IMG/VR virus record: IMGVR_UViG_3300021364_001752
Location: 1 to 64,000 of that record
Source of the DNA: a virus
Reading direction: 5' to 3' (one strand)
Length of the DNA stretch: 64,000 nt
Shown here: positions 6,915 through 58,927 of the stretch, piece after piece
Numbering within the stretch: position 1 is the stretch's first letter
How the letters are laid out: each line of letters begins with the position of its first letter
Translations under genes and position numbers: made by a program
Notes under the pieces: model-generated
Told to the model about the DNA's origin: nothing
What the model saw: only the letters and a program-made list of their open reading frames with translations
Database searches by the model: none

Positions 6915-9788
6915 GTGCGTCTTCGTCAATTATATACAGAACAAACATTAACACTAAAACAAGCTCTCAAAGCATACGCCAAAGAAGTGTATGGATCTGG
7001 CATGATGACAATATATCCAGAAGCTCTAGTCGGCGGTTTGCTCTACAGTCTGGATCCTGTAGATTTTACTAGTAAATGGCAAGAAGGTATAAATGCAATG
7101 ACCTCTCTAGAAGACGGCAGATATATTTCAGATAAATTAGATGTTGACCGTATAGTTAAAATTTTGCAAGATGCAGATAACAAGCCAGGTTCTGATTTTC
7201 ATAGGTGGGCCAGCAGGTGGTATGCATTGGATGACCCTAGCAAAAACAAAGCAGTTGATAACTGGAAAAAAGCCATTAAAGACAAGACTGAGTTTGACTT
7301 AGATGCCTATAGAAAAGCTGGAATACGATCATATGGAGGAACATCTGGATCTGATGACTCAGATGAACCATCATCATCTGCACCTGATTATATTCCAATA
7401 AATCCTGATGCAGCAAAGTTTACTAAACCGGCATCGGAATATTCCAACAAGCCGCTAACTCCTCAAGTGATTGCAAACGGGACATGGACCCCTGACGAAA
7501 TTCCACCTCCGCAGCCAATTATTCCTGAACAAAAAACTGGCGAATTTTACTTTGGAGATGAGTTTGCGGGAGATTGGAAATATTCACAGTTTGCCAAGCT
7601 GGCTGTAGGTGTTGCCCTCACAGGTGACACTAGATTATTTAATCGCCAGACAAAGCAGGATTGGTATTTCGAAGATTTTCTTGCTTCATATCCAGGTAAT
7701 ATAGATATCAATCATGGCATTAACCAATACAACAGGACATCAAGATATGACGGCGGCGGATCTAAATGGGAAAATGGATTATTATATTATTTAAATGACC
7801 TGACTGATATCCCTAGGTATATGAGAATACTTCCTGATATGATACAAACCGTGAAGGAAAATTACAAAGCAGCACAAGAGGCTGCTGCTAGAGGCGACAA
7901 GTCTAAGATACAAAAACCCAAAAGATATGCTGCACCATCTAGACCAGGGGAAGTTTCGAATTTTGGTAAAGATCATTGGGTAACATTCAACATGAGTGTT
8001 TTTAAAGACAGCCTGCAATTGATGGCAGATCGTGGAATTGCCAGTAAATTGAATACACTAAAAGATCCTATCCTTACACTTGGATTGTTAGGCGATCCAA
8101 GAATGAAAGAAGATATAGACAAAGTTAAGATGATGTATGGTCCTATTGAGGAAATTGACTTTGATGCTATGCCTTATGGGTTTTTAGGTATTTACAGTAT
8201 TAAAAAACCAACACCTAAAGATGATGGCACGATTCCTGATATTGCAATAGGCGGAACACAAATGGGTTTGACCTTGCTTGACAGAGCTTTTGGACTGGAA
8301 CAAACCAGTATATCAAAAACATTAGCACACGAACTTAGACATAGAGCTTTCAATATTATAATGGATATTGAAGAGCTACGCAATATGATGCCAGCAGATC
8401 TTCGTGAAGGTGGAGACTGGTGGGGAAGCTGGGGAGGCTATTACGAGGATAGCAAAACTGATGAAGGTGCCACAGCAGAACATGCAATGCTTTATGCTAT
8501 GGATTGGGGTTTAAACCCCCCTTTAAGGCGAATGGGTTTCTTTGATAATCGTGTGTTTACTACTGAAACCCATCCTATACAGTATTGGCATGACCTTTAT
8601 GAAGAATGCTCTAAAGCTGTTGGGGAATATTTGAAAAAAGTAGGAGCCGGGTTAGTAGATGTGGAAGCCGTCACAATCAATCGTCCTGACACATTTGGCG
8701 ATGATGTCATTACACCGCAGGATACAAGAAATCAAGCATTGTTGAATCTTACTCCGGGCTTGCCCGAATTGTTTAGACATATAGTGCAAACTGATCAATT
8801 GGATGCACTAGAAGCTGTAGAAGATGCAGCCGGTTTTCTTGATATGCTGATAATCGGTTTTGGTGATATTCTTTGGGGCGAAGATGTCAAAGAATATTTA
8901 ATGCCAACTCTTAACAGTCTTGTAGCTGCTACAAAGTATGCAGATTTCAAAGTAGCACTTGCTCAAACAAAAAAATTAAAAAGAATTTTGAATTATGTGC
9001 AAATGTTAAAAGATAGAAATCCTGACTACGGCGGAAAATATTTCAAGCAAAAAGATATAGAAAGGCAGATAGAATTTATAGACAAACACCTTGAAGCATT
9101 GGGTAAATTCAAAGACATAAACAAACTATCTCCATCTTACTTTGCTGCACTGTTAGCGGCTGGAAAAATTGAACCAGCAACACTTGCCGAAGTAAGAGCA
9201 GCAATGCCTTACACCATGTGGGACCTGGCAGATTACAGTGGTTATGATAGAGAACAATTCAAAGATCCAGGTGCTCAGCCACCAGAAAATGTTGGGCTAC
9301 CTAATCCGTTAACACCGCCCGAACCTGATCCAGCCAGCGAACCAGATGACGGCGACTTTGGGCCAGCAGAACCAGAAAAACCAGAAGACACACCAGAACC
9401 CGAGGACGAACCAGAAGATACACCAGAACCCGAGGAGCCACAACGAGGAGACGATCCTGAAGATCTTCCTTACATCTATGATGGAATACCGTTATTTCAT
9501 GTCGGAGGTAAACCTTTGACAGGCAATGAACTCCTCACATCTCAAGCTATTCAAGAAGTTTTAGATTATTTGATAAACTCAGATCTCACAGATGAGTTTG
9601 ACGATTGGGCAGGCACACCATGGCCTGGCAATTATGATATGCGTAAAACAATTGATTACTACAATAAAAACATAGGCGGTAATTCAGATGCAGCCTATAG
9701 AGGCAGCATTGGAGAATATATAGATGACGAACTTGCTGCTAAAATTATACGTAGATACGAAAAAGAAAAAGCAACAAGAGATGTATAA
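6915..9788 (+). CDS. Large putative internal virion protein with HExxH zincin motif
   Basis: TLAHELRHRAF; Pro/acidic linkers; MRLRQLYTE N-terminus; TAAGGAG SD. Confidence 0.55.
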   Translation: MRLRQLYTEQTLTLKQALKAYAKEVYGSGMMTIYPEALVGGLLYSLDPVDFTSKWQEGINAMTSLEDGRYISDKLDVDRIVKILQDADNKPGSDFHRWASRWYALDDPSKNKAVDNWKKAIKDKTEFDLDAYRKAGIRSYGGTSGSDDSDEPSSSAPDYIPINPDAAKFTKPASEYSNKPLTPQVIANGTWTPDEIPPPQPIIPEQKTGEFYFGDEFAGDWKYSQFAKLAVGVALTGDTRLFNRQTKQDWYFEDFLASYPGNIDINHGINQYNRTSRYDGGGSKWENGLLYYLNDLTDIPRYMRILPDMIQTVKENYKAAQEAAARGDKSKIQKPKRYAAPSRPGEVSNFGKDHWVTFNMSVFKDSLQLMADRGIASKLNTLKDPILTLGLLGDPRMKEDIDKVKMMYGPIEEIDFDAMPYGFLGIYSIKKPTPKDDGTIPDIAIGGTQMGLTLLDRAFGLEQTSISKTLAHELRHRAFNIIMDIEELRNMMPADLREGGDWWGSWGGYYEDSKTDEGATAEHAMLYAMDWGLNPPLRRMGFFDNRVFTTETHPIQYWHDLYEECSKAVGEYLKKVGAGLVDVEAVTINRPDTFGDDVITPQDTRNQALLNLTPGLPELFRHIVQTDQLDALEAVEDAAGFLDMLIIGFGDILWGEDVKEYLMPTLNSLVAATKYADFKVALAQTKKLKRILNYVQMLKDRNPDYGGKYFKQKDIERQIEFIDKHLEALGKFKDINKLSPSYFAALLAAGKIEPATLAEVRAAMPYTMWDLADYSGYDREQFKDPGAQPPENVGLPNPLTPPEPDPASEPDDGDFGPAEPEKPEDTPEPEDEPEDTPEPEEPQRGDDPEDLPYIYDGIPLFHVGGKPLTGNELLTSQAIQEVLDYLINSDLTDEFDDWAGTPWPGNYDMRKTIDYYNKNIGGNSDAAYRGSIGEYIDDELAAKIIRRYEKEKATRDV
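9381..9436 (+). repeat. 30-bp tandem coding repeat (PEDTPEPED/E)
   Basis: CCAGAAGA(C/T)ACACCAGAACCCGAGGA twice. Confidence 0.8.
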
Positions 9789-24983: not shown

Positions 24984-25205
24984 ATGTTGAGAAACGACCT
25001 TAAAGAATACTACAAAGTTTTCTACATGGTGAAAGGTCACCTCGACGCATCACCTCAGACAGTTATAGATAGTTACAACGGATACTTTCGTCGACTATGG
25101 ATCGATGGAAGTAACGGCGCTCCTCTGTATGACTATGAAGAACAGTTCGAACAAGCATGGGAAGACATACAAAATGGTTTCAAAGAAAATACAAGAACTC
25201 AGTAA
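24984..25205 (+). CDS. Hypothetical protein (probably leaderless)
   Basis: GTAAATA-4nt-ATG. Confidence 0.6.
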   Translation: MLRNDLKEYYKVFYMVKGHLDASPQTVIDSYNGYFRRLWIDGSNGAPLYDYEEQFEQAWEDIQNGFKENTRTQ

Positions 25206-25392
25206 CGACGACTTGTCGTATTTAGAAAAACTATTAGGCGAGCAATTTGCCAAAGAACTTGAAAGAGACAAAACCTGGGTCCAAAAAAATAACTATCATC
25301 GCCCAGGTGAAAAGAAAAGCAGAATACTTCGCCTTATGAATGCCATCCGTGCTCAACAAGATATCAAAAAACGCACAGCAGAAAAGTGGTAA
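25174..25392 (+). CDS. Hypothetical protein
   Basis: Start re-called at MVSKKIQ. Confidence 0.55.
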   Translation: MVSKKIQELSNDDLSYLEKLLGEQFAKELERDKTWVQKNNYHRPGEKKSRILRLMNAIRAQQDIKKRTAEKW

Positions 25393-25418
25393 TGCATATC
25401 TGATATGCACCAAAAAGG

Positions 25419-25449
25419 TTGACCTCATTTACATAACATGTTATAAATA
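25419..25449 (+). promoter_or_regulatory. Overlapping sigma70-type and T4-late-type promoter of tmRNA
   Basis: TTGACC-17-TATAAA and TATAAATA 25442-25449. Confidence 0.7.
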
Positions 25450-25454
25450 GCTTT

Positions 25455-25838
25455 GTTAGCGTTGAAGCAACGTGGACACATACTGGACCCGGGTGCGATT
25501 CCCGGCAGCTCCACCATAAGGACACTATAATGGCATTGATTTGGACAGGAATACAATACACAAGTTTAGCCGCACTACTGGGAATGTGTGTGACGAAATG
25601 GGTTATTGATTTCCGTGCTTGGAGAGCAGGCAGACAAAAGCCAAAATGCTGCGGATAGTGTTTTTATGATGGGGCTGATCAGGATCGACAGGTGTGAAAG
25701 TGAAGTGGAGTTAACCGGATGACTGCGTAATAAGTCAATCAAACTAGATGCAAACGATAATTTTGCACCATCTGAGTTCGCTCTAGCAGCGTAACCACAG
25801 GGGGTATGGGCTCCACCTAGCAACAGAACGGGCCTCCA
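25455..25838 (+). ncRNA. ssrA: Circularly permuted two-piece tmRNA (alphaproteobacterial type); outer ends approximate
   Basis: Acceptor piece with T-arm CCGGG-TGCGATT-CCCGG and CAGCTCCACCA (ends 25516) precedes the coding piece starting GGGGCTGA at 25671 (G3:U70 Ala pair); tag GCA AAC GAT..GCA GCG TAA 25750-25794 = ANDNFAPSEFALAA. Confidence 0.93.
25530..25658 (+). CDS. 42-aa single-TM peptide encoded inside the tmRNA intervening segment
   Basis: TAAGGA SD 7 nt before ATG; MALIWTGIQYTSLAALLGMCVTKWVIDFRAWRAGRQKPKCCG. Confidence 0.55.
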   Translation: MALIWTGIQYTSLAALLGMCVTKWVIDFRAWRAGRQKPKCCG

Positions 25839-25880
25839 AGATGAAACATAGGTTATAGCACATCTGAAAGGAAACCCAAA

Positions 25881-27008
25881 ATGTTTAAAACAATCGCCGC
25901 ATCGATGATGCGGTTTTCAGCGTTAGCAGCGTTGGCATTGACTATTCTCACTCCATCACAAGCAGCAGCAGAAACCAAAGTAGGTTTTGTTTACGTAGGT
26001 CCAGTTGGCGACCTTGGTTGGACATACCGCCATGACATTGGACGTCAAGCTGTAGAACAAGCATACGGTGATGAAGTTTCTACTACCTACCTAGAAAACG
26101 TGCCAGAAGGTCCTGAAGCAGTTGAAGCAATTACTCAACTTGCAGAAGCTGGACACGATATTATCTTTACGACCTCTTTTGGATTCATGGATGCAACCAA
26201 CGAAGTTGCTTCTAGATATCCAGACATTGCATTTGAACATGCAACTGGTTATATTCGCGAAACTGAAAACATGGCTACCTTTGGAGCACGTTTTTATGAA
26301 GGGCGTGTTGTAGAAGGCATGCTTGCAGCGGAAATGACCAAAACCAACAAGATTGGTTACATCGCATCATTCCCTATTCCAGAAGTGGTGCGCGGTATCA
26401 ACGCATTTATGTTGGAAGCACAAAAGCACAATCCAGATGTTGAAGTTGACATTGTTTGGGTTTACACCTGGTTCAACCCAGCAGTTGAAGCATCAGCAGC
26501 ACAGGCATTGATTGATGAAGGTGCTGATATCATTGTGCAGCATACAGACTCGCCAGCGCCATTAAGTATTGCAGAAAAAGCTGGTGTATACGGATTCGGA
26601 CAAGCGTCAAACATGAGCCGCTTTGGTCCTAGTGCGCATCTTGTGAGTATTGTAGATGATTGGGATAGTTACTATGTTGACCGTGTAGGTGAAGTTATCA
26701 ACGGCACCTGGGAAGGCGGAGACACCTGGTGGGGTCTTACCAAAGACGGTCAAGGTGGCGAAAAGGGTATGGTAGCCCTTGAGAGCTACAATGTCGAAGT
26801 GCTTGGACAGGATCTAGTCGATCGTGCCATTGCACTTGAAGAGTCACTTGCTAATGGTGAGCGTCACGCATTTCCATGTGAAGGATTGTTTATGCAAGAC
26901 GGTTCGGTTCCAGAGGACTGTGCAAATGGCGAAGAGCATCTTACAGATGGAACTTTGCTTGGTATGAATTGGTATGTAAAAGGAATTGACGCATCCCTTC
27001 CAAACTAA
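25881..27008 (+). CDS. BMP-family ABC transporter substrate-binding protein (purine/nucleoside-binding type)
   Basis: Signal peptide; VGFVYVGPVGDLGWTYRH, TTSFGF, FEHATG, FPIPEVVRGINAF, QHTDS. Confidence 0.92.
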   Translation: MFKTIAASMMRFSALAALALTILTPSQAAAETKVGFVYVGPVGDLGWTYRHDIGRQAVEQAYGDEVSTTYLENVPEGPEAVEAITQLAEAGHDIIFTTSFGFMDATNEVASRYPDIAFEHATGYIRETENMATFGARFYEGRVVEGMLAAEMTKTNKIGYIASFPIPEVVRGINAFMLEAQKHNPDVEVDIVWVYTWFNPAVEASAAQALIDEGADIIVQHTDSPAPLSIAEKAGVYGFGQASNMSRFGPSAHLVSIVDDWDSYYVDRVGEVINGTWEGGDTWWGLTKDGQGGEKGMVALESYNVEVLGQDLVDRAIALEESLANGERHAFPCEGLFMQDGSVPEDCANGEEHLTDGTLLGMNWYVKGIDASLPN

Positions 27009-27233: not shown

Positions 27234-28241
27234 TTAAAAAGTTTTACCTATTTTTTCTTCGTCGTGGTCAGCGCCGAAAAACTCTTTGTAGGTATCAGGA
27301 TTTATAATGACCTTAAGTTTATCTTCAAGGTTTAATGATTTATACCATTCTTTGAAATTGTTGCCAAATGTGTCTACGTCATCACCAATTTCAACAGTTG
27401 CATTTACCCAGCCAGTGTTTCTTTTCCTGTCCGGATCTACGTAATATTTTACTTCAGGCCAACGGCTTGCCATATCGTCAAGAAAGTCTTTTTTGTTGAT
27501 AAGTGCATAAAGTTTTTTTAGCTTTTCAACATCATCGTTTTGATGGAACGCTATAAGTATACCCTGTAACACTATATCATCTTGTGGATTTTTAATGTAT
27601 TTAGAAAGTTTTTCTACTCTGTAGTGTGCCAATCTACGTAGTTCAATAGCTGATTCAATAGATAACTTGCTACGTAGAGCAAAGGTGGTTGCTACAGCGT
27701 CAAGTTTATCTTGATCGTCCATTTGCGCTAAAGTCATATCCCAATCTCTGTTGGCTCGAACTTCCTTATACATCGGAATATTGTAAGCATCGTATCGTTG
27801 ACTGCCTTGCGATCTTCGGCGTGGAGGAGTTGTAGTAGATCTGCCTTGATCAAAACCTGATGCATCTCTATCGCCTCTAGCTCTACGTCTTCCTTTACCA
27901 GGATTCATCCATTGATAATGTTGACCAGCAATTGCAACCATACCAGTGACTAGATTGCCTAATTTATCTAATAGTTGCTTAGTTTTAGATGAAGGACCAG
28001 CTGCCCGTCTTGAACCTCTAGGCGAATCAAATTCATCTCCATATGCTCTTGGTGGTGCATCAAATTCGTCGCCGTAGTTTGCACCTGGTGGTGCATCAAA
28101 TTCATCTCCATATGTTGCACCTGGACCTGCTGAAAATTCATCACCGTATGTAGCAGGTGTTCTTGCTGACATCATACGGTCAAATGCATCTCTCGAGGAT
28201 GGCATGCGTGGATCTTCACTAAGGATATCAATAATTTTCAT
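27234..28241 (-). CDS. Putative internal virion protein with YGDEF repeats
   Basis: Start re-called at MKIIDILSE (GGAG SD, GTAAATA promoter just upstream). Confidence 0.65.
   Translation of the reverse strand: MKIIDILSEDPRMPSSRDAFDRMMSARTPATYGDEFSAGPGATYGDEFDAPPGANYGDEFDAPPRAYGDEFDSPRGSRRAAGPSSKTKQLLDKLGNLVTGMVAIAGQHYQWMNPGKGRRRARGDRDASGFDQGRSTTTPPRRRSQGSQRYDAYNIPMYKEVRANRDWDMTLAQMDDQDKLDAVATTFALRSKLSIESAIELRRLAHYRVEKLSKYIKNPQDDIVLQGILIAFHQNDDVEKLKKLYALINKKDFLDDMASRWPEVKYYVDPDRKRNTGWVNATVEIGDDVDTFGNNFKEWYKSLNLEDKLKVIINPDTYKEFFGADHDEEKIGKTF
28021..28160 (-). repeat. Four approximately 36-bp tandem coding repeats
   Basis: ATYGDEFSAGPG/ATYGDEFDAPPG/ANYGDEFDAPPR/AYGDEFDSPRG. Confidence 0.85.
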
Positions 28242-28448
28242 TGTGTTCTCCGTGTTACAGTATTTACCTTGCCTATCAAAACCATGCATGCCTTTAAATG
28301 GGTAATATTTGCAAGAAAACCTATTGCTCCAAGCGAAGGTATATAAACGCATTGTTTACCATGCCTGCTACACTTTAGCGCAGTTCTACAACTTGACATT
28401 GTAAAATTTGTATGCTATATATTAATACTTAGACACACGGAGATTAAT

Positions 28449-28885: not shown

Positions 28886-29027
28886 GTTATCAGTAAAAGA
28901 TTTAGAACTTATCGAGAATGCACTGCACAGACTAGAACCAACTCGAGAAGTTCAGGAACTTTTAGGACGACTACACAATCAAAAGAATTGGTATCGTCCA
29001 AAAGACGCAATCTATGTAGGAGGATAA
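28863..29027 (+). CDS. Small protein of a type recalled from Rhodobacteraceae (not in ORF track)
   Basis: 54 aa MKPNKKFELSVKDLELIENAL..LLGRLHNQKNWYRPKDAIYVGG. Confidence 0.6.
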   Translation: MKPNKKFELSVKDLELIENALHRLEPTREVQELLGRLHNQKNWYRPKDAIYVGG

Positions 29028-29029
29028 AG

Positions 29030-29464
29030 ATGCGGATTTTAACTACACTAGGACTACTGTTAGTAATGGCAACAAGTGCCTTTGCTGAATCAAGGACAGT
29101 TGAAATGTGGAACAAGGACCCAGAAGACAAAAAGCGTAAGATGGTGTTCTCAGAAGAAATCGTCGTTATTGAACCAGGCGAATCAGTTACTTGGTTAGCA
29201 ACAGACAAAGGTCACAATGTGCAATTTATTGACGGTCCAGATGGCTACGAACTGCCAAAGAAATCAAAGATTTCAAAAGACGTTACAATTACATTTGATA
29301 CTCCAGGTGTTTATGTTTATGTTTGCACACCACACGCAACAATGGGCATGATTGGAATGATCATAGTAGGAGATTTAACTCAAGAAGGAGTTGATGCAAT
29401 ACGTGACGCAAAGTTACGTGGAAAAAGCAAAAAGAAGTTTAAACAACTTTTGAGCGAACTGTAA
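29030..29464 (+). CDS. Pseudoazurin (type 1 blue copper protein)
   Basis: Signal peptide; KGHNV..YVCTPHATMGM copper ligands H-C-H-M; AGGAGG SD. Confidence 0.92.
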   Translation: MRILTTLGLLLVMATSAFAESRTVEMWNKDPEDKKRKMVFSEEIVVIEPGESVTWLATDKGHNVQFIDGPDGYELPKKSKISKDVTITFDTPGVYVYVCTPHATMGMIGMIIVGDLTQEGVDAIRDAKLRGKSKKKFKQLLSEL

Positions 29465-36566: not shown

Positions 36567-36872
36567 ATGAGTGTTGATACAGAAGTTGTATTAGACGAAA
36601 AAATTAAAATCAAACAGAAACAGCCAAAAAAATATAAAGTTGTTTTCCTAAACGATGATACTACGCCTATGGAGTTTGTTGTAGGTGTGTTAATGGAAAT
36701 ATTCAAACACTCTGCCGCTACAGCAGAAAAAATTACAATGACTATACACAACGAAGGCAGTGGTGTCGTTGGTGTTTACAGTTACGAAATTGCAGAACAA
36801 AAAAGTATCGAAACTACACAAGCTGCAAGAAACAATGGTTTTCATTTACAGGTTAGATTAGAAGAAGAATGA
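36567..36872 (+). CDS. clpS: ATP-dependent Clp protease adaptor ClpS
   Basis: YKVVFLNDDTTPMEFV, IH.EG, EIAE.K. Confidence 0.93.
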   Translation: MSVDTEVVLDEKIKIKQKQPKKYKVVFLNDDTTPMEFVVGVLMEIFKHSAATAEKITMTIHNEGSGVVGVYSYEIAEQKSIETTQAARNNGFHLQVRLEEE

Positions 36873-58335: not shown

Positions 58336-58927
58336 AAAAACAAGTAAAGGCGAACGTGCTTACGATATCTACAGTCGCTTGCTTAAAGATCGTATTGTAA
58401 TGCTGAATGGTCCTGTAGAGGACGGAATGGCAAACAGTATTGTATCGCAATTGCTTTTCTTAGAAGCAGAAAATCCTGACAAAGAAATTAATTTGTATAT
58501 TAACTCTCCAGGTGGCGCTGTAACTGCTGGACTTAGTATCTATGACACCATGCAATTTATCAAGTGTGATGTTAGAACAATTGTTTTAGGTCAAGCAGCA
58601 AGCATGGGTAGCTTCTTAGCACAAGCAGGCACAAAAGGTAAACGAGTAGTGCTACCAGAAAGCCGCACAATGATTCATAGAGTATCAAGTGGAACACGAG
58701 GCACCAGTGGTAGTGTCCATGTTCAAGAACTTGAGTTTGAAGATGCTCGTAGACACTTTGAAGAAAGTAAACGCCTTAATCAACGTTTGACTGAACTTTA
58801 TGTAAAACACAATTCAGTAGGCAAATCTTATGAAGAACTTTTTGAAACTATGAAGTTTGACACATTCTTGAGTGCTGAGGAGGCAGTGGAAAATGGATTC
58901 GCAGACAGAGTCATCGAAAGTCGCTGA
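58310..58927 (+). CDS. clpP: ATP-dependent Clp protease proteolytic subunit
   Basis: [28 protein letters not shown] (Ser), MIH (His), D.FLSA (Asp). Confidence 0.95.

Follow-up and report, generated by a model that had tools for sequence, protein, structure and literature searches.

What can be housed in the segment that a two-piece transfer-messenger RNA (tmRNA) loses during its maturation is the question raised by a locus in a marine phage sequence from IMG/VR. The window, that is, the whole stretch of DNA analyzed, comprises the first 64 kb of the virus record IMGVR_UViG_3300021364_001752, which has 80,455 bases and is estimated to represent about 25% of the genome; its phage origin is backed by a tail-fiber gene and a class I ribonucleotide reductase. 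On the plus strand, on which all features lie unless stated otherwise, a permuted tmRNA gene has its acceptor piece at 25455–25516 and its coding piece at 25671–25837, and the 154-nucleotide (nt) intervening sequence removed in maturation (the spacer, 25517–25670, which falls within the insert region of both Rfam alignments of the gene) contains an open reading frame (ORF) of 42 codons at 25530–25658. Our analyses favor, with good confidence, the reading that this ORF genuinely encodes a peptide of 42 residues, predicted as a single helix, and that the gene sits in the spacer as cargo in a slot and is probably expressed via the tmRNA precursor.

The ORF is preceded by the Shine-Dalgarno sequence (SD) UAAGGA (25518–25523), located 6–7 nt ahead of the AUG at 25530, and ends with the UAG at 25656–25658. 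Sites of the AAGGA/GGAG type precede 17 of the 27 window ORFs that were checked, including the 42-codon ORF, and they are alike in motif and spacing. Shuffling of the spacer produced an ORF of equal coverage in 398 of 20,000 sequences, and one that also had an SD in 21 of 20,000. By chance, such an ORF is uncommon but not rare, and the verdict on whether it is a gene must therefore rest on the comparison with relatives. When the peptide segment WVIDFRAWRAG was back-translated into a pattern and sought in contigs of viruses and metagenomes, this retrieved 14 loci with 11 distinct alleles of the 42-codon gene, none of which was broken. Sequence variation among these alleles was distributed as 5:0:19 over codon positions 1:2:3; 21 of the 42 codons vary, and only five of them change the residue (L13F, M19L, Q36K, K37Q, and P38S). 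Likewise, the Nei-Gojobori ratio of nonsynonymous to synonymous differences (pN/pS) is 0–0.28 in every pair of alleles, with nine synonymous and three nonsynonymous changes between the window allele and that of the related locus L047. Judged by this pattern, the spacer ORF is a genuine protein gene, evidently under strong purifying selection. An earlier reading of the locus, made from its sequence only, had proposed a gene within the intervening sequence and had named retention of the ORF in relatives as a check; the comparison is positive, and the distribution of changes and the low pN/pS values support a real, selected gene.

The relatives also reveal where the gene can reside, which in all 14 gene-bearing loci is either the tmRNA spacer or the position immediately after the tmRNA. 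The gene is in the spacer of four tmRNA backbones (that of the window and L293; L046 and L294; L048, L049 and L292, whose tag is ANENFALAA; and L291), and immediately 3′ of the coding piece in three variants (L044/L045, L047/L296, and L290/L295). Among the window, L046, L048, and L049 the spacer is 94–97% identical, whereas in the same comparison the flanking acceptor pieces are 66–71% and the coding pieces 55–78% identical, with compensatory changes in the T-arm. From these identities, the spacer cassette has been exchanged between diverged tmRNA genes. Additionally, L044, L045, and L047 are syntenic with the window, with 69–82% identity in the flanking genes and 90–94% in the ORF. The tmRNA backbones of L291 and L047 are nearly the same, and their ORF alleles differ by 1 nt, but L291 carries the ORF within the spacer and L047 behind the tmRNA; therefore, the gene has changed place between these sites either recently or repeatedly. 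In L047, the spacer (oriented coordinates 9405–9517) holds a stem-closed insert of 113 nt in which no ORF was noted. The L290 locus, which also has the gene behind the tmRNA, has a stem-closed spacer insert of 72 nt, again with no ORF noted. The distribution over the 14 loci shows the gene as cargo in a slot, with the spacer loop and the position just 3′ of the tmRNA as alternative docking places for small phage genes, and also shows an obligatory linkage of the gene to the tmRNA unit.

ARAGORN predicts a single permuted tmRNA at 25423–25885 with the tag ANDNFAPSEFALAA, and the Rfam families tmRNA_permuted (RF04321; 108.4 bits, cut-off 47, model positions 1–213) and alpha_tmRNA (RF01849; 97.9 bits, cut-off 50, model positions 1–355) both match over their full length. 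The gene has the two-piece, alpha-type order, with the acceptor piece and its encoded CCA upstream and the GGGG-initiated coding piece downstream. As delimited by these predictions, the acceptor piece includes the 3′ half of the tRNA-like domain, with the T-arm, the 3′ acceptor strand CAGCUCC, the discriminator A, and the CCA end; the sequence CAGCUCC-A-CCA (25506–25516) pairs with the GGGGCUG (25671–25677) that starts the mature 5′ end of the coding piece, GGGGCTGA, such that G25673 is opposite U25510, as in the pair G3-U70. The tag frame (25750–25794) specifies ANDNFAPSEFALAA followed by a stop, with an alanine resume codon and a ClpXP-type LAA degron. The cut by RNase P is predicted to fall between 25670 and 25671, as taken from the known maturation of the family. 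No SmpB gene was found in the 80-kb record, which represents about 25% of the genome. Incidentally, the phage has genes for ClpP (58346–58921, 218 bits) and ClpS (36618–36854, 102 bits) that accompany the tmRNA with its LAA tag, and together they look like a phage-run tagging-and-proteolysis kit.

By eye, the tmRNA unit has a promoter region at 25419–25449, composed of TTGACC (25419–25424) and TATAAA (25442–25447) separated by a 17-nt gap; the GTTATAAATA of this region is kept in relatives, and the −10 overlaps a T4-late-type TATAAATA (25442–25449) that is kept in all of them. The overlap with this T4-late-like motif suggests that the tmRNA unit is expressed both early and late. A consensus promoter scanner did not list this upstream promoter, whose −10 has A as its sixth base; the only promoter that it listed, a 9/12 match inside the 42-codon ORF, was not credited. 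The only promoter-like site seen by eye is upstream of the acceptor piece and, as far as can be told from this arrangement, the ORF has to be part of the tmRNA precursor transcript.

The spacer is closed by a stem of 14 base pairs, including two G-U pairs (G25520 and G25521), with a duplex energy of −14.2 kcal/mol. Its 5′ arm, CAUAAGGACACUAU (25515–25528), delimited from the folds and the duplex energy, holds the SD, and its first two pairs use the C and the A of the CCA end; the 3′ arm, AUAGUGUUUUUAUG (25655–25668), holds the stop codon, and next to it comes the AU with which the UGAU leader ends. All the coordinates of this layout given in the sequence-only reading, from the CCA end at 25516 and the 5′ end at 25671 to the 154-nt spacer, the 14-pair stem, and the SD-led ORF, hold. 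Minimum-free-energy folding recovers the stem both for the spacer (z = −3.9) and for the entire precursor, and in the predicted precursor fold its arms extend the acceptor helix. Short ORF-less spacers from other contigs in our scans form a hairpin from just after the CCA to 4 nt (UGAU) before the GGGG, and their purine-rich 5′ arm, UAAACAC or UAAGCAC, is one or two changes away from UAAGGA. Because these spacers have the same kind of closing stem, it looks like a property of the spacer rather than of the gene, with the ORF filling its loop. Furthermore, in L073 nearly identical arms, with the same first 11 bases in the 5′ arm, enclose a different ORF of 55 codons, and L046 tolerates a G-G mismatch opposite the SD.

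The location of the SD in the closing stem has predictable consequences for its accessibility. The predicted probability that the SD is unpaired is 0.71 in the nascent transcript, when the 3′ arm has not yet been made, and 0.00–0.01 both in the complete precursor and in the excised spacer; for the spacer alleles it is 0–0.21, vs. 0.83–0.94 for the alleles located after the tmRNA. Because the same gene is kept elsewhere with an open SD, the occlusion is probably incidental to the location in the spacer and no requirement of the gene; in the models, it may confine initiation to a co-transcriptional window. In the scheme that we propose, the gene would be transcribed within the precursor from the tmRNA promoter (early-type plus T4-late-like), whether it sits in the spacer or after the tmRNA, and cleavage by RNase P at 25670/25671 together with 3′ trimming to the CCA at 25516 would produce the two tmRNA pieces and a stem-closed RNA of 154 nt. 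Initiation would most likely take place on the nascent precursor, ahead of the synthesis of the 3′ arm (with the SD about 70% open, and about 0–1% afterwards), or alternatively upon transient opening of the A/U-rich stem of −14 kcal/mol. One arm would then serve both as stem and as ribosome-binding site (RBS), leading to SD occlusion as a side effect.

RNA data were available as contigs assembled from RNA libraries, which do not reach to transcript ends, strand, abundance, or translation, and in which uncovered parts, the neighboring genes among them, are uninformative. The RNase P site is bridged by a 78-nt contig of a marsh metatranscriptome treated with DNase, which matches 25633–25710 without a difference. 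A 181-nt contig from a seawater metatranscriptome corresponds to 25471–25644 with 11 differences, and therefore originates from a relative; it spans the CCA end and continues into the ORF. In a third contig, a tRNA-like domain is connected with a spacer ORF that belongs to another family (MEVIWHILL...). These contigs fit an ORF-containing precursor, for which they are weak evidence. Contig depth at 25455–25516 and 25681–25740 comes mostly from conserved tmRNA parts of other organisms; likewise, apparent skips of 25488–25681 and 25516–25669 were rejected as evidence of excision, since they derive from contigs of other tmRNAs with shorter spacers.

The product of the ORF, MALIW...KCCG, consists of one moderately hydrophobic helix and a basic tail, RAWRAGRQKPKCCG, whose terminal KCCG is invariant; AlphaFold2 models it as a single helix over residues 3–36, with a mean predicted local distance difference test score of 76.5. 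Its designation as a membrane peptide in the sequence-only reading is plausible from the hydrophobic helix and the basic tail, but it is not secure, with a maximum Kyte-Doolittle mean over 17 residues of 1.46 compared to the usual 1.6. We suggest, with low confidence, that the peptide acts at the inner membrane of the host or in its proximity. A 5.8-billion-protein collection contains one relative, P0001 (from ENA), which is 90% identical and was also the only one found among 1.8 billion representatives in a profile search; its predicted gene reaches too far upstream, across the tRNA-like domain, and its spacer arms are visible only via that translation; a further candidate, P0002, was rejected as a repeat artifact. 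The sole match in PHROG is weak (phrog_19977, function unknown, E = 0.003). The comparison of the peptide by tblastn with 50,697 phage records returned chance matches only; therefore, no cultured phage carries the 42-residue peptide.

We surveyed the generality of spacer ORFs with one anchor pattern, placed on the 5′ end of the coding piece, in viral contigs and in bacterial and archaeal genome assemblies. The 119 loci analyzed from viral contigs contained 94 unique spacers of 29–266 nt, and the 120 loci from genome assemblies contained 90, of which 86 were 26–82 nt long; spacers of at least 100 nt were thus 43 of 94 in viral contigs vs. four of 90 in genome assemblies (100, 184, 260, and 266 nt). 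An ORF spans at least 70% of the spacer in 39 of the 43 long viral spacers, some of these being short read-through frames that we do not credit individually, and in all four long spacers from genome assemblies; three of the latter have convincing SD-led or conserved ORFs, two of them from families also found on viral contigs. Short frames ending in ...MMG.. arise by reading through AUGAUGGGG and were not counted as genes unless the family was conserved. Incidentally, alpha-type two-piece tmRNA genes with phage-type spacer ORFs occur in metagenome-assembled genomes (MAGs; loci L198 and L263), one of them labeled as a Methanobacteriota archaeon; the MAG-borne long spacers are probably phage contigs binned into MAGs. 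With the T-arm of the window as anchor, an SD-led ORF was found in every spacer of at least 104 nt and no convincing ORF in any of 97 nt or less. Together, these counts show that ORF-filled spacers are a habit of viral contigs and not of the sampled genome assemblies.

Other families of spacer ORFs also show purifying selection, with pN/pS values of 0.11–0.45, and their cargo is diverse: 18 of 47 are clearly hydrophobic, and the others are basic, cysteine-rich, or acidic. Many of those from other phages start 13–24 nt past the CCA and terminate within the 3′ arm or close to it, and in the 47 ORF-bearing spacers the stop is past the cut in 17, on the UGA of the leader in nine, and elsewhere in 21. 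The spacers from L002/L007, L018, L073, L070/L102, L076, and L128 exemplify ORFs that either take their stop codon, UGA, from the conserved leader UGAU, only 1 nt ahead of where RNase P cuts, or continue past the cut. The processed messages of ORFs that stop at the leader UGA or past the cut would end at or before the stop, making them natural substrates of tmRNA. The L128 ORF is, moreover, homologous to a gene that lies upstream of the tmRNA in the window, at 24984–25205 (blastp E = 1e-11). Among cultured phages, Melnitz (a phage of Methylophilales; L042, 1389–1553) has an unannotated SD-led spacer ORF, MFKWLSKTRLVVITRDYF...KIPKYLSG..., that extends past the RNase P site and could provide a laboratory model; relatives of this ORF occur in L112, L144, and L075. 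The spacer of Sinorhizobium phage Phosso, of about 400 nt, has no ORF filling it.

The position of the ORF within the stem could also reflect regulation, with ribosomes on the ORF keeping the arms apart and translation competing with the folding and processing of the tmRNA, either to set the ratio of peptide to mature tmRNA or to sense the supply of ribosomes. The presence of both SD and stop codon within the arms would fit such a coupling, as would the exposure of the SD only until the 3′ arm is made, the extension of the acceptor helix by the arms in the predicted fold, and the similar placement of start and stop in many spacer ORFs of other phages. We nevertheless consider it unlikely, since syntenic relatives with nearly the same tmRNA keep the gene outside of the spacer with an open SD, stems in the same register close short ORF-less spacers, L046 tolerates the mismatch opposite the SD, and the position of the stop varies widely in other families (17 past the cut, nine on the leader UGA, and 21 elsewhere). 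The first two of these observations do not sustain the dedicated coupling of translation and precursor folding that the sequence-only reading had put forward. A specific form of the idea, a sensor of ribosome supply, is in our view very improbable: the SD would be free during about 125 nt of synthesis, and a loaded ribosome would hold the arms apart until termination in the 3′ arm, delaying the formation of the acceptor helix and the cut by RNase P, whereas with free ribosomes scarce because many are stalled, the stem would shut at once and the tmRNA would mature faster. If true, the spacer would serve phages both as a generic plug-in site for expression and as a means of feedback on ribosome rescue.

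The mobility of the cassette might instead suggest a selfish or neutral passenger, spread by recombination at the conserved flanks (CCA-UAA... and ...UAUGAU-GGGG), harmless in that place and of little use to the phage. Near-identical spacers in strongly diverged tmRNA backbones, interchangeable cargo within the same arms (L073 and L128), and the precedent of the ORF in the 23S rRNA intervening sequence of Coxiella, apparently unexpressed and decaying (PMC4990558), agree with this possibility, to which we give little credence in view of the strong purifying selection on the peptide (5:0:19; pN/pS of at most 0.28), the absence of broken alleles among the 11, the retention of the gene also outside of the spacer, and the lack of an obvious way for a 42-residue helix to promote its own transfer. 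The small size of the product and its hydrophobic helix with a basic tail would also be compatible with a membrane disruptor, be it a type I toxin like Hok or TisB or a holin or pinholin, whose translation would be held back by 5′–3′ pairing until processing. The hok mRNA undergoes fold-back inhibition by pairing of the RNA ends, the SD of the spacer ORF is sequestered by pairing of two RNA ends, and 18 of the 47 spacer ORFs are clearly hydrophobic; but no described toxin family matches (none in Pfam and only the weak phrog_19977), hydropathy reaches only 1.46, the SD is open in the alleles located after the tmRNA, and most spacer ORFs of other phages are not membrane proteins. Furthermore, neither an antisense RNA nor a lysis gene was seen nearby: the scanner listed no antisense promoter in 25200–26000, and the Pfam scan of the neighbors gave no lysozyme or spanin family. 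A disruptor thus appears an improbable identity for the peptide. Finally, the spacer could be a structured noncoding RNA in which the open frame is accidental, as it folds better than its shuffles (z = −3.9) and about 2% of these yield an equally long ORF; this is hardly credible, given that variation tracks codon position (5:0:19), that the ORF is likewise conserved where the surrounding RNA is different and lacks the arms, and that a canonical RBS is present.

Several points weigh against the preferred reading of an expressed cargo gene. The high identity of the spacers (94–97%) leaves the selection test only 19 third-position differences to draw on. The processing sites are carried over from what is known of bacterial two-piece tmRNAs and are, to that extent, putative. 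With the SD almost fully paired in the predicted folds of the precursor and of the excised spacer, output from the spacer may be low. The helix is borderline for a membrane segment, and no family was found for the peptide, with no match in Pfam, no family in the ESM Atlas, and nothing beyond its own cluster in the profile search of 1.8 billion representatives. Lastly, RNA support comes from assembled contigs of depth 3–4, from libraries that may contain DNA. Established for this locus are the two docking sites in one phage lineage, the contrast in SD accessibility, the control with genome assemblies using the same anchor, and the RNA-library contigs over both processing sites.

The neighborhood of the tmRNA includes, directly behind it, a gene for a Bmp/PnrA-like substrate-binding lipoprotein of an ABC transporter (25881–27008; PF02608, E = 4e-52). 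Compared with L044 and L045, which are syntenic, this gene and the one at 27234–28352, the sole minus-strand gene in the neighborhood, form an insertion; the minus-strand ORF has 372 residues, with YGDEFDAPPGA-like tandem repeats near its N-terminus, and matches no Pfam or PHROG family. A gene at 28988–29464 codes for a copper protein of the plastocyanin/azurin family (PF00127, E = 2.5e-15), and the remaining neighbors scanned had no Pfam match. The small gene just upstream of the tmRNA (24984–25205), which shows the motif YMVKG..SY.GY..RLW and is homologous to the spacer ORF of L128, also has homologs in L158 and L163, apparently without a canonical start codon.

The intervening sequences of two-piece tmRNAs are treated as disposable linkers and are masked in annotation; therefore, small genes inside them are systematically missed, of which the unannotated spacer ORF of the cultured phage Melnitz is an instance. 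If the spacer is a working expression slot, a single transcript would be both a stable-RNA precursor and a messenger, enzymes of tRNA processing would set the ends of the messenger inside a single tRNA-like domain, and phages would gain a recombination-friendly site for swapping small genes. The locus also offers a testable system for translation vs. RNA folding and processing on one molecule, as well as a pool of unannotated small phage proteins.

The gene shares features with several known systems. As with the mRNAs of type I toxins such as hok/sok, the peptide is small and moderately hydrophobic and its SD is hidden where the two ends of the RNA, 5′ and 3′, pair with each other, but in our case no antisense RNA was seen, there is no family match, and the SD is not occluded in alleles outside of the spacer. 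Transcripts punctuated by, or shared with, tRNAs are known from mitochondria and from the tufB and tyrT-tpr units of E. coli. As in these, the messenger ends would be made by RNase P and by 3′ tRNA processing, and the alleles located after the tmRNA match them closely; in the window, however, the messenger is flanked by the two halves of a single tRNA-like domain and enclosed in its extended acceptor helix. A protein gene within or between stable-RNA genes, removed at the RNA level while the RNA still matures, is also found in the homing-endonuclease genes of group I introns of tmRNA (for the intron form, see PMC11915505) and in the free-standing nuclease genes of phage tRNA clusters; unlike these, the spacer involves no intron, self-splicing, or nuclease, but the ordinary end-processing of a permuted gene, and its cargo is a 42-residue helix.

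The nearest described analog is the intervening sequence of the 23S rRNA of Coxiella burnetii, which contains the S23p ORF, is excised by RNase III, and is apparently untranslated in vivo and decaying (PMC4990558). Both are stem-closed, ORF-holding, excised segments of a stable-RNA precursor that were horizontally acquired; the spacer of the window, however, is in a tmRNA rather than an rRNA processed by RNase III and is flanked by a CCA end and an RNase P site, and its ORF, unlike that for S23p, shows strong purifying selection and comes with a canonical RBS. Permuted tmRNA genes are known from Alphaproteobacteria (Keiler et al., 2000, as cited in PMC9004378) and from marine myophages, such as the OM43 phage Melnitz (PMC9004378). 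Protein genes within the intervening sequences of tmRNAs were not described in the literature that we searched by full text: in the 2025 paper on the tmRNA database, the contents mentioned for such sequences are limited to a tRNA-Ala gene and a repetitive element (PMC11915505), and the account of Melnitz covers its tmRNA and a glnA riboswitch without a spacer ORF (PMC9004378). The gene of the window conforms to the permuted genes of Alphaproteobacteria and myophages in its succession of an acceptor piece with CCA, an intervening sequence, and a coding piece, in the G3-U70 pair and in the LAA end of the tag, as well as in a spacer hairpin that begins directly behind the CCA and stops 4 nt (UGAU) short of the GGGG; it differs from them in that the loop of this hairpin holds a selected protein gene.

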